Positions 15,363 to 18,492 of a stretch of 25,910 nucleotides of DNA are shown here, one piece after another. A program made the translations under genes and the position numbers. The stretch spans positions 1 through 25,910 of IMG/VR virus record IMGVR_UViG_3300030493_000350. One strand, 5' to 3'. The stretch is from a virus. Taxonomy: Duplodnaviria; Caudoviricetes. Every line of letters begins with the position of its first letter. Position 1 is the first letter of the stretch. The notes beneath the pieces are model-generated. The model ran no database searches. It saw only the letters and a program-made list of their open reading frames with translations, and had not been told where the DNA came from.

Positions 15363-15746
15363 CTAAAGCCCCCTGATCGATATGCTGGCTTTCTCCTGTG
15401 TCCCAGCTTTTACAAAGATAACTTTTGCAAACTCGTATTCTCGCACAATAGAGCAACAATCATCCGGCCACGCTTCTCCGTTTAAGGCATCATTGATCCC
15501 TTTTATAAGATTATCTAAATCTACCCGGCGGCCTTCTCTTATATGAAATTCATACCCAATAGAAACCGGACCAAAGAAGCACTTCCCTCCGGACTGGCGA
15601 TAAGATAAGACAACCAGTTCTCGAAAGGCAAACCATCGCTCTACGATATCCCTTCCAGCCCATCTATCTCTCTGAGTCATCCTCGGCTTAGAAGACAGCT
15701 TCTTGCAGGTAACTGTAAACACAAATTCTTTGTTACTTAATTGCAT
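15363..15746 (-). CDS. rusA: RusA-like Holliday junction resolvase
   Basis: KPRMTQRDRW and DLDNLIKGINDALNGEAWPDD motifs. Confidence 0.85.
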   Translation of the reverse strand: MQLSNKEFVFTVTCKKLSSKPRMTQRDRWAGRDIVERWFAFRELVVLSYRQSGGKCFFGPVSIGYEFHIREGRRVDLDNLIKGINDALNGEAWPDDCCSIVREYEFAKVIFVKAGTQEKASISIRGL

Positions 15747-16831
15747 GGTGAATAGAATAGGCTGTGCCGCAACCGATAAGTATTGGCATGCTTAAAATGC
15801 CCGAGATAAGAACTGATCACGGCTTTAATCTTTTCCGGATTAATGTTTACTGAAGCAAACATTTTTAGCTTAGCCTTAAGGTTGTTTATTACCCGCTTCC
15901 TCACCAATACATACCCAGGCCTTACGATATACCCCAGGAAATCGATACCATTGGACACCGGCAACAACTTGCGCCGCTCAGGATGCAGCTGAAGCTTCAG
16001 CTGCTGGGCGACAAACTCATCGATCCGCCCTCTCAATTCCGCCAGCTTCTCCGGGTCTGTATCCAGAATCACAAAATCATCCACGTACCGGAGATAATGC
16101 CGGCATTTAAGAGTATGCTTGACGAATTGATCAAGCTCATCGAGATATACGTTGGCAAAAAACTGGCTCGTGAGATTTCCTATCGGAAGGCCGCGCTCAT
16201 TATCCTTACCGAAAAGGCTTTTGTTGACCGGAATGGATTTCAATAGTGCGGAATCACCCCGGATGATGTACGACTTTGTGCAATCCCAGAAGAGAATCAC
16301 CCGGGTAAGCCATAAGATATCCGGGTCGGTTATTTTTCTTTTGATCAGATCGAAAAGAATTTCTTTATTAATTGACGGGAAAAAATCTTTTATATCGAGT
16401 TGCAGGTAATATGCTCTTAACTTGCCGTTCCTGGTAGCCTGCCGGGTGAATTTACGCAACCTGTGTACTGCGGCATGTGTACCTTTACCGCTCCGGCAAG
16501 CGTATGAATCATGAATAAAAACCGGCTCGAAGACCTTTTCCATCTGATCCACAAGAAGATGGTGCACTATTCGATCTCTAAAATCAGCCGCGAAGATCTC
16601 CCGCTTCTTGGGTTTTGTTACGGTAAACAGAATAGAGCGCGAAGGATGGTAAGTTTTCTTGGTTAGTTCCCATTCGAGCTGGATAATATTCTCGGAGACA
16701 CCAATTTCAATCCGGAGAGCATTAATTGTGTTGCGTTTCTTCTTCCGGCAATCGATATAAGCCCGATAAATATTTTCGAACGAAAATATACTGCTTTTAG
16801 AATCGTTGGCTGGAACGGACGGGACGAACAT
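15737..16831 (-). CDS. DGR reverse transcriptase
   Basis: KKREIFAADFRDRIVHH, LDIKDFFPSI, GLPIGNLTSQ (the SQ typical of DGR RTs), YLRYVDDF and GIDFLGY. Confidence 0.96.
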   Translation of the reverse strand: MFVPSVPANDSKSSIFSFENIYRAYIDCRKKKRNTINALRIEIGVSENIIQLEWELTKKTYHPSRSILFTVTKPKKREIFAADFRDRIVHHLLVDQMEKVFEPVFIHDSYACRSGKGTHAAVHRLRKFTRQATRNGKLRAYYLQLDIKDFFPSINKEILFDLIKRKITDPDILWLTRVILFWDCTKSYIIRGDSALLKSIPVNKSLFGKDNERGLPIGNLTSQFFANVYLDELDQFVKHTLKCRHYLRYVDDFVILDTDPEKLAELRGRIDEFVAQQLKLQLHPERRKLLPVSNGIDFLGYIVRPGYVLVRKRVINNLKAKLKMFASVNINPEKIKAVISSYLGHFKHANTYRLRHSLFYSPCN

Positions 16832-16896
16832 AATTATGATTGTCCTTATCGTTGTTGTTCACGTTGCCGTTGTTGGAACCCACGCACCACGCGGCC
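16807..16896 (-). repeat. DGR template repeat (TR)
   Basis: AAC-rich 90 bp (reads AAWCVGSNNGNVNNNDKDNHNYVRPVRSS) between avd and RT. It differs from the two VRs almost only at adenines. Confidence 0.96.
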
Positions 16897-16928
16897 CAAA
16901 GGCAACAACAAGCTGCTTGCCTCTTCAC

Positions 16929-17414
16929 TTAATGCCGATAATGGCCATCGGAAACAGATCCTTTCGGTACCATTTCCTGTTTTCTCATACCTGAACTGCT
17001 GGTGGAAAAGGCGCCCAGTGACTTCCTATTCGCAGGCTCCCGGGCAGGCTTCTCTTGCCTACCGGGATTCTCACAACTTCTTAGCCATCCTTCGCACTGT
17101 TTTGATACCTCACTGACTTTTCGCGCGGCTACCGCATAACTATGAGGGTTACGGTATGCTTTAATCTCAGCGCATATATCCACTTTTATCTTTAGTTCTA
17201 ATAATTTATCCAAGGCGAGTCTAAGGTTGTTTTCTCTTAGTGAGCGGATATTGGCCTTGGCTATCAAAATGAGCGCAGCATACGAATCCCTACGGATATC
17301 TACTCCGATCTGGTATTTGTGATATCTCTCAAAGCCGCGGATGAGCATTTCAAAATAGGCGGTCATATCTTTTGCGGCTTTATACACTCTTAGATTTTCG
17401 TACGCTGCGCTCAT
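16929..17414 (-). CDS. avd: DGR accessory variability determinant (Avd, four-helix bundle)
   Basis: YENLRVYK..FERYHKYQIGVDIR..EVSKQCEGW; lies upstream of TR. Confidence 0.88.
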   Translation of the reverse strand: MSAAYENLRVYKAAKDMTAYFEMLIRGFERYHKYQIGVDIRRDSYAALILIAKANIRSLRENNLRLALDKLLELKIKVDICAEIKAYRNPHSYAVAARKVSEVSKQCEGWLRSCENPGRQEKPAREPANRKSLGAFSTSSSGMRKQEMVPKGSVSDGHYRH

Positions 17415-17448
17415 ATCTTCCTCAATGGTCTAAATTGTCAAAATGTCA

Positions 17449-17889
17449 TCACTGGCTGGAACGGACGGGACGAACATAATTACGACTGCCCTTATCGAGG
17501 CTGTCCACGCCGCCGTAGCCGGAACCCAAGCACCACGCGGCCGTATAACTGCCGTCTTCCTGCCTTGTCCAGGCGCATTGATCACCTGACCAATACCAGT
17601 TGTCGAATTTGCCCTTAAAGATCCCGGTGTCATAGCAGGGATCGTGTTTCGTGCGGTCGAGCATACCGCACAGCTCTTCCACTGTCGGCAGCCGCCAATC
17701 CTTAAAGCCGGCATGCCCCTTCTCGTTCAGCGCCGCGATCGCCTTCTCGGCCTCCTCGTAGGTCATTGCCCGCTGAAAATCCTCTCCCAGCTGCGTGGGA
17801 TCCTGCACGATCAACAGCCCGCTGTTCTTATCCGTCACCGTGTTGTCGCCGTTTGCTGTGAATCTTGCCTCTCTCGCCGCCTTTACCAT
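17449..17889 (-). CDS. DGR target 1: DUF1566 (Lcl C-terminal, CLec-fold) protein
   Basis: RFTANGDNTVTDKNSGL, WRLPTVEEL, YWS and YVRPVR motifs; VR at the 3' end. Confidence 0.93.
   Translation of the reverse strand: MVKAAREARFTANGDNTVTDKNSGLLIVQDPTQLGEDFQRAMTYEEAEKAIAALNEKGHAGFKDWRLPTVEELCGMLDRTKHDPCYDTGIFKGKFDNWYWSGDQCAWTRQEDGSYTAAWCLGSGYGGVDSLDKGSRNYVRPVRSSQ
17453..17542 (-). repeat. DGR variable repeat VR1
   Basis: 13 mismatches to TR in 90 bp, 12 of them at TR adenines. Confidence 0.95.
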
Positions 17890-17943
17890 CTTTCCTCCTT
17901 CTCTCTGTGTTGTTTGGTTTAACGCGCCTTAAAGGTCAAAAGG

Positions 17944-18492
17944 TCACTGGCTGGAACGGACGGGACGAACATAATCACGATTGGCCTTACCGACGTTGAG
18001 CACGTCGCCGTCGCCGGAACCCACGCACCACGCGGCCCCTGTATTCCAAGCGCAAAGTGTTGAAGTCCAATACCAGTCATCGAACTTCCCGCCAAAGATA
18101 TTTTTATCCCAAGCGGGGTTGCAACAGCTATAGTCGATAATAGAACTCAACTCCTTAACTGTCGGCAGCCGCCAATCCTGTTTTCCGGCATAATTAAGCC
18201 TGGCGCAAGCCTCTACGGCTGAGGAGAAATCCATAACTTTATCTAACCCGGGGATACTGGAAGGGTCTTTGACAAACGTAACCTTAAGAATGCTATCTGT
18301 CACGGTCCCATCACCATTATCAATAAACCTGTTTGGTGTCTCCTTGGTAGTAATCTTGACTAAAGGAGACGAGTTTCCCATGAGTATTCTACGGATATCC
18401 TGCAACACACTTAACAAAGTATCTTTATTTTTTCTTACCATGTCGATACCCTCCATCCTCTCACTTTTGCTTCGCTTGCCGGTTGTTTCCAT
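17944..18492 (-). CDS. DGR target 2: DUF1566 protein (alternative start ATG 18441)
   Basis: RFIDNGDGTVTD, WRLPTVKEL, YWTST and YVRPVR motifs; GGAGG SD precedes 18441. Confidence 0.93.
   Translation of the reverse strand: METTGKRSKSERMEGIDMVRKNKDTLLSVLQDIRRILMGNSSPLVKITTKETPNRFIDNGDGTVTDSILKVTFVKDPSSIPGLDKVMDFSSAVEACARLNYAGKQDWRLPTVKELSSIIDYSCCNPAWDKNIFGGKFDDWYWTSTLCAWNTGAAWCVGSGDGDVLNVGKANRDYVRPVRSSQ
17948..18037 (-). repeat. DGR variable repeat VR2
   Basis: 12 mismatches to TR in 90 bp, all at TR adenines. Confidence 0.96.

Follow-up and report, generated by a model that had tools for sequence, protein, structure and literature searches.

A recently active diversity-generating retroelement with two small lectin-fold targets among the early genes of a lambda-like phage

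The stretch analysed here (the window) is a single 25.9-kb contig, positions 1 to 25,910 of the virus record IMGVR_UViG_3300030493_000350, and represents a fragment of a lambda-like phage. It contains a diversity-generating retroelement (DGR), real and recently active, which comprises a reverse transcriptase (RT), the accessory protein Avd, one 90-bp template repeat (TR) and two variable repeats (VRs) at the C-termini of two small proteins with a domain of the C-type lectin (CLec) type. Based on position and anatomy, we tentatively propose, with a confidence a little short of probable, that both targets are cytoplasmic hypervariable binders, most likely directed against variable host defence proteins. 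An earlier note on the same DNA had suggested hypervariable intracellular binders; the small targets in the replication module and the variation of the VRs agree with that suggestion, whereas the role itself is inferred from position and anatomy.

The TR (16807..16896), VR1 (17948..18037, the C-terminus of target 1) and VR2 (17453..17542, the C-terminus of target 2) lie, like every other DGR element, on the minus strand and form a single three-copy repeat family in the window; no further TR-like copy was found in the window or in L028, a locus identical to it. VR1 differs from the TR at 12 sites, all of them TR adenines (12/12), and VR2 at 13 sites, comprising 12 TR adenines and one G>T change, giving 24 of 25 pooled mismatches at TR adenines (binomial p ~3e-13; 27% of the TR is A). 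The substitutions in VR1 and VR2 differ from each other. These recounts reproduced the figures of the earlier note, as did that of the 13 A-containing codons in the variable stretch, which allow ~8.5e12 possible peptides per target. The composition read in that note is supported by the repeat family and by the profile matches of the RT (RVT_1, E 8e-21; PHROG 1423, E 2e-116), whose catalytic motif YVDD is intact at residue 249, and of Avd (PHROG 3206 'Avd protein of DGR', E 1.5e-17), although Avd stays under the curated Pfam and NCBIfam cut-offs (NF033474, E 6e-9). The 3' end of the VRs is invariant, and a T-rich motif, a candidate homing signal, directly follows VR1 (17930..17947, minus strand), with a similar one directly after VR2 (~17431-17448, minus strand). 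No stable hairpin was found after either VR (DNA fold energies of -1.5 and -0.5 kcal/mol). The DGR of Bordetella phage BPP-1 has a hairpin after its VR and a spacer between TR and RT.

Contigs from groundwater sequencing runs indicate that the element has been active recently. Three runs (X1, X2 and X3) contain 86-88% of the sampled words, and no RNA data set was among those listed. X1, which may be the source sample of the window, is identical to it at both VRs, and X2 is identical at VR2; the pieces listed for X2 leave VR1 partly uncovered, and this gap was not used as evidence. Other alleles are seen in X3 for both VRs, and the contigs that carry them are anchored in unique flanks. Over target 2, a contig of 517 nt shows 16 differences; the 14 that are listed all lie in VR2, 13 of them at TR adenines and the remaining one matching the TR. 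Over target 1, 747 nt show nine differences, the seven listed ones all (7/7) at TR adenines. Pooled over both VRs, 20 of 21 listed differences fall at TR adenines, an observation that concerns contigs with one alternative allele per VR and not read diversity within a sample. The flanks of the VRs in X3 are identical to the window, and both VRs have therefore been rewritten; the population variation at VR1 and VR2 that the earlier note had proposed as a check is thus seen between contigs. The contig P0001 carries target 2 with 11 VR changes, all compatible with the TR, but it looks like the X3 allele and was therefore not counted as independent. Runs X4 and X5 contain small shares, X5 having only pieces of relatives. 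A related DGR (~85% identical over 15900-18700) is present in X1 and X2 at a contig depth above 1000, compared with 10-60 for the window phage.

Target 1 (17944..18492, minus strand) and target 2 (17449..17889, minus strand, 146 aa) both match PF07603 Lcl_C (formerly DUF1566) above the cut-off (E 1.8e-24 and 2.1e-20, respectively) and are 48% identical to each other. Their earlier description as essentially bare CLec domains of 146-182 aa stands, with a correction to the start of target 1. The longest open reading frame (ORF) of the latter encodes 182 aa, and the protein likely begins at the second Met (18441), giving 165 aa, because homologues begin there; ahead of its Lcl_C/CLec domain it has a short N-terminal amphipathic helix, which is conserved among homologues of its class. 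Neither target contains a hydrophobic segment (best 19-residue hydropathy means of 0.56 and 0.31), consistent with the earlier statement that signal and transmembrane segments are missing. In the Atlas model of target 1, residues 58-182 align to Lcl_C proteins (TM 0.92 by row). The model of target 2 has a pLDDT of 68 and is weak in the VR; its best fold matches, to the Lcl C-terminal domain and TvpA, are weak, and Foldseek returned no match for it at E<=0.001. Matches of the target fold to TvpA and TaqVP by VIA-align had low Z. The C-terminal domain of Legionella Lcl (PDB 8Q4E; PF07603) is the best sequence match to the targets (E 2e-4) and the best fold match, though a weak one that shows no function (Foldseek E 0.11; Z 5.3, root-mean-square deviation 6.9, 112 aligned). 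Longer homologues, when searched for, proved to be Lcl_C proteins with several domains, mostly cellular and 24-40% identical, matches that say nothing on a fused form of these targets, and tblastn of target 2 against 50,697 GenBank phage records gave no match at 1e-5.

The gene order on the minus strand is an O-like replication gene, SSB, ParB, a C5 methylase, a MazG-like gene (a pyrophosphohydrolase), YopX, target 1, target 2, avd, TR and RT, followed 3' of the RT by rusA, an N6 methylase, terS/terL, head genes and the tail tube gene. The identification of these neighbours by Pfam and PHROG confirms the placement between YopX/MazG/methylase genes and rusA given in the earlier note. Its statement that the cassette lies on the far side of cos from the structural genes was not upheld: a cos site was not located in the window, and the cassette shares its strand with terS, ~3.2 kb upstream of which it lies.

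To place the element among its relatives, we used an IMG/VR scan with the RT, which returned 27 loci, two of them identical to the window, and target scans, which added further loci; L001, L002, L028 and L111 repeat the window sequence exactly and were not taken as independent. In a tree of 67 distinct RTs, a quick version with long-branch warnings from which only this 26-row clade was used, 26 RTs including that of the window form one clade (SH-aLRT 98). A TR/VR pair was detected in 17 of the 25 clade relatives, and five of the other eight have <700 nt available upstream of the RT. The RT scan supplied 15 of the 17, and the target scans, which favour like targets, the other two (L034 and L119). 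In 16 of the 17, the targets are at most 232 aa long (two are cut by contig ends) and have replication (rep), recE/T, exonuclease, parB, methylase or rusA genes as neighbours; the same cassette position, which the earlier note had suggested surveying, thus recurs in 16/17 clade relatives. Two VRs are present in nine of the 17, and one VR was found in eight. L174-L181 stand outside the TR-finder count; among them L174 repeats L034 and L177 has a longer target. Across 27 VRs in 17 loci, 393 of 861 TR adenines differ compared with five of 1894 other bases, a count that takes in the window, L024 and L027 and in which the limits of the repeat finder favour the adenine ratio. The VRs of the clade are followed by a similar T-rich motif and the TRs are not, as judged by eye. 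In TR/VR pairs of the clade, TR adenines before G seldom change (1 of 33 in the AAG context compared with 96 of 195 in AAC), which may stem from selection for Lys or from an RT that is biased by context.

Two further observations concern the completeness of related elements. In L014 (9595-10056), there is no avd, and the end of a CLec gene passes directly into TR-like sequence and overlaps the RT; a VR-TR deletion has likely frozen the element. In L032, L030/L033 and L117, intact targets of the target 1 and target 2 types are present with no RT in the available flanks, and L117 retains avd; targets can persist after the RT is gone or be supplied by a distant one.

The host of the window phage is likely a member of the Omnitrophota, as sequence matches suggest. 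Two of the three best genome matches are Omnitrophota metagenome-assembled genomes, and the RT matched eight of 401 Omnitrophota genomes at E<=1e-70, four of them at 59-66% identity; the best target match is a 37-kb contig binned as Sulfuricurvum. One Omnitrophota prophage shows, in order, host genes, integrase, repressor, a replication module with target-avd-RT-rusA, head genes and tail genes to the contig end. In a scan from the integrase to the contig end, its TR matches the early target only, giving one VR, and no VR was found in a separate Mtd-like or fibre-like gene of its tail; the right end of the prophage may be cut. The idea of a 'split Mtd', with the target docking on a tail fibre that lacks its head, was not supported in this one prophage, where the Mtd-like tail protein matched, over its full length, a family of phage proteins of similar length.

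In the strongest alternative to cytoplasmic binders, the target genes lie outside the tail module but code for small components of the virion, either detachable receptor-binding tips or decorations of the capsid, and the element is a host-range DGR as in BPP-1; we consider this unlikely, though it deserves serious weight. Most viral DGR targets are tail proteins, and CLec targets are usually so (PMC8144416, PMC12636319), a precedent in favour of virion proteins. The same holds for the location of the cassette on the late-gene strand, for structural-context targets within the same RT lineage (L024, L026/L027), for the conserved N-terminal helix of target 1, which could dock, and for the host range or adaptation suggested in the announcement of Burkholderia phage Magia, whose DGR targets lie in short genes (PMC7883833). 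Against virion proteins stand the location of the targets among early genes in 16 of the 17 clade relatives and the Magia targets themselves, which lie in a repressor-side operon on the strand opposite to all structural genes. The helix motif, moreover, had no convincing match outside CLec targets among the 3481 proteins of the relative loci, and the Mtd-like protein of the Omnitrophota prophage matches its family over its full length and is therefore not stump-like, as a protein lacking its tip would be.

Several observations weigh against the cytoplasmic reading. In the exceptional relative L024, a 261-aa target with a hydrophobic N-terminus follows the capsid gene; in the sister pair L026/L027, 300-aa CLec proteins follow the tape measure gene; and the RT of L019 is followed by the tail genes at a distance of ~1 kb. 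The named relatives of the target domain are surface adhesins, the Lcl C-terminal domain being part of a larger surface protein. The cassette strand is the late-gene strand, and promoter and terminator counts in the window are at chance level (20 vs 17.7 and 19 vs 15.8, respectively), so that late co-expression is possible. The distal tail genes of the window phage lie beyond the contig, and a remote tail VR is therefore possible. PADLOC, which searches for defence systems, gave no match. In addition, Roux et al. warn that targets classed as 'non-structural' may be structural proteins that have gone unrecognised (PMC8144416), and the second VR of Roseburia phage Shimadzu, in orf43, is active but under weaker selection than the tail target (10.1101/575076).

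Among isolated phages, the best GenBank RT matches are to Pseudomonas, Burkholderia and Shewanella phages at 40-42% identity. In the five isolates examined, Burkholderia phage Magia (MT701587), Shewanella phage vB_Sb_QDWS and Pseudomonas phages LPPA56, Cruim01 and Haboob, small targets adjoin integrase, recombination or methylase genes, whereas four more distant isolates (RT identity 35-39%) have targets of 319-446 aa, which in three cases neighbour annotated genes of the tail or baseplate. The Magia-type isolates share with the window a complete cassette among early genes, in which small lectin-fold targets, Avd, TR and RT lie together, as well as several targets, a TR end overlapping the RT frame and a structured RNA between avd and the RT. 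They differ in that the window RT is on a separate branch, the window RNA does not match RT-15, to which theirs belongs in four of four scanned, the targets show only weak similarity (profile E 5e-7 to 0.1 in a search of 11 proteins) and the window cassette lies in a replication operon directed toward terS rather than in a repressor-side operon. The component order of BPP-1 (mtd-avd-TR-brt), its adenine-specific changes and the C-terminal VR in a CLec fold are also like those of the window. However, Mtd of BPP-1 is a multi-domain trimeric tail protein (PMC6328139); the window has, instead of a multi-domain receptor-binding protein in the tail module, two bare domains between YopX and rusA.

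The novelty implied in the earlier note was overstated, as non-structural phage DGR targets, including ones near methyltransferases, are already in print (Quimbyvirus, Shimadzu and Magia). A DGR target near methyltransferases in Quimbyvirus was proposed to serve phage-host conflict (PMC8008677), and four prophages have a second VR near counter-defence genes (PMC12629997). Like those of the window, the Quimbyvirus, Shimadzu and PMC12629997 targets are CLec proteins or proteins without a known function that lie away from the tail, those of Quimbyvirus and the prophages being near methyltransferases as in the window, and for second targets of gut phages a counter-defence role has been proposed. 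Quimbyvirus and Shimadzu also have a tail-region target, whereas the prophage of the window clade shows no tail VR, and the second targets in all three reports are remote from the RT, whereas those of the window lie together with it in the early module. Two viral target clusters, PC_00007 and PC_00009, are classed as non-structural or unknown (PMC8144416); they resemble the window, by description only, as phage DGR targets not predicted to be structural, and may already include its target family. Two targets occur in 13% of DGRs, and the smallest targets are bare folds (PMC5758913). BPP-1 was described in 2021 as the only experimentally studied phage DGR (PMC8008677). In the literature searched, which included few subscription papers, we found no functional test of such a target, no account of this clade and no RT start inside a TR. 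What the present analysis adds is the evidence of activity, a clade whose early targets appear to be its only ones, and the layout of the RNA and RT.

The targets might also act inside the cell but on other phages or mobile elements, by superinfection exclusion or competition, which we judge rather improbable. The relatives are temperate, with integrase and repressor, bacterial DGRs diversify cytoplasmic CLec sensors, some of them CLec-only, that are proposed to detect phage (PMC10907252), and the related DGR phage co-occurs in X1 and X2 at far higher contig depth, all of which would suit such a role. However, judging from lambdoid biology, a lysogen would not express an operon that lies downstream of the repressor, and no effector or defence gene is conserved beside the targets.

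Variation in cassette position among the relatives, the lack of RT or Avd nearby in L014, L030/L033, L032 and L117, and the weak selection on the second VR of Shimadzu (10.1101/575076) would fit a mostly neutral mobile passenger in an accessory-rich early region, whose variable proteins matter rarely or never. This is quite doubtful in view of the two target subtypes, which keep the same order in L021, L023 and L032, the orthologues of target 2 being closer to target 2 (60-65% identical) than target 1 is (48%). The scaffolds of the targets are also intact, and targets persist where an RT was not seen.

The same conserved order of the tandem pair in three relatives, together with the recurrent pairing in the clade of a 'helix + CLec' gene with a 'CLec only' gene, seen by eye in Magia and QDWS as well, could be read as an obligate heterodimer with combinatorial diversity like that of antibody heavy and light chains. 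Such an obligate pair, which the earlier note had raised in the form of a heteromer, is highly improbable: one VR was found in eight of the 17 relatives, including the Omnitrophota prophage, and unrelated genes often separate paired targets (L005, L006, L010 and L016).

The reading frame of the RT (15737..16831, minus strand, 364 aa), which overlaps rusA by 10 nt at its 3' end, opens at an ATG inside the TR and takes in the last 25 nt of the latter. Sixteen of the 17 clade relatives likewise have an in-frame ATG inside the TR and lack any further start ahead of the RT core, whereas in L024 and L027 the RT has an ATG of its own, located after the TR. The ATG inside the TR is also set by Tyr-Val codons of the targets and is present in L024 and L027 too, and the argument for a start in the TR therefore rests on frame continuity. 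A Shine-Dalgarno-like motif before the RT ATG is weak evidence because three clade members lack it, yet it occurs in L024, where the RT starts at a separate ATG. Translation of the RT from the ATG inside the TR is thus likely on comparative grounds. Upstream of the TR, ~170 nt (16919..17090, minus strand) fold into a conserved structure in which 25 of 42 pairs are compensatory in 16 loci; none of 500 shuffles reached the observed value, and slid controls were 29-45% paired compared with 96%, the structure having been derived from the same alignment that tested it and the loci being related. The last ~40 codons of avd (16929..17414, minus strand; 161 aa, pI 9.8) overlap this RNA, and Avd is longer than most of its clade homologues (115-125 aa). 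The covarying RNA is likely part of the DGR RNA; no Rfam match, RT-15 included, was found over 16600-18600 at E<=1. In the four tail-linked DGRs examined, TR and RT lie 130-190 nt apart, whereas in the window they overlap, and the overlap together with a 5' RNA structure lacking an Rfam match points to a DGR RNA layout unlike that of the tail-linked elements examined.

Considering these results, we propose the following scenario for the window phage. In BPP-1, Avd-RT makes errors at adenines as it copies the TR RNA, and each VR is independently replaced by the cDNA; by analogy, the Avd-RT of the window would copy its TR RNA, err at adenines and supply cDNA that replaces VR1 and VR2 separately, thereby rewriting the C-terminal tips of two small lectin-fold proteins of the replication operon. 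With the RT start inside the TR, template and RT message may be one RNA, with the structured element 5' of the TR. The targets would be expressed with the replication genes, absent from virions and located in the cytoplasm, where they may bind host defence or regulatory proteins, and the N-terminal helix of target 1 may serve as a docking or self-association module. In its broadest form, which we regard as possible but doubtful, a widespread lineage of temperate phages would use its DGR only for antibody-like cytoplasmic binders (~1e13 variants each) that neutralise variable proteins of host defence early in infection, in a compact design with the RT translated from inside the template RNA. 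If the targets do act as binders inside the cell, they would give phages an adaptive counter-defence akin to antibodies and would mark fast-evolving surfaces of host defence. The BPP-1 DGR switches receptors; the window locus shows recent turnover at both VRs, and cultured phages of the same layout, such as Shewanella phage vB_Sb_QDWS, make the question testable.

Just upstream of target 1, a basic protein of 119 aa (18516..18875, minus strand) may be an accessory or regulator. It has no Pfam match and is possibly helix-turn-helix-like, as read by eye and with no family match; homologues (33-41%) lie near the DGR in L005, L008 and L023 and ~7.5 kb off in L012.

Elsewhere in the window, eight repeats with an 11-bp period and inverted symmetry (23744-23866) lie within the O-like replication gene and are likely origin iterons. 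Two 45-nt near-palindromic repeats (5482-5526 and 9576-9620), 87% alike, lie among the late genes, one ahead of the major capsid gene and one at the start of the head-tail adaptor, and are possible regulatory hairpins. A near-consensus sigma-70 site (12594-12623, plus strand; 11/12), one site from the chance-level promoter scan, lies just upstream of terS on the opposite strand and is directed toward the early operon. Two membrane-protein genes (125-954, plus strand) face the tail operon, one of them matching superinfection immunity PF14373 (E 7.5e-17). Finally, the ParB-like gene is split in two ORFs of 170 and 340 aa (21059-22693); its counterpart in L003, 88% identical, is one 542-aa ORF, and a frameshift or an assembly error is suspected.

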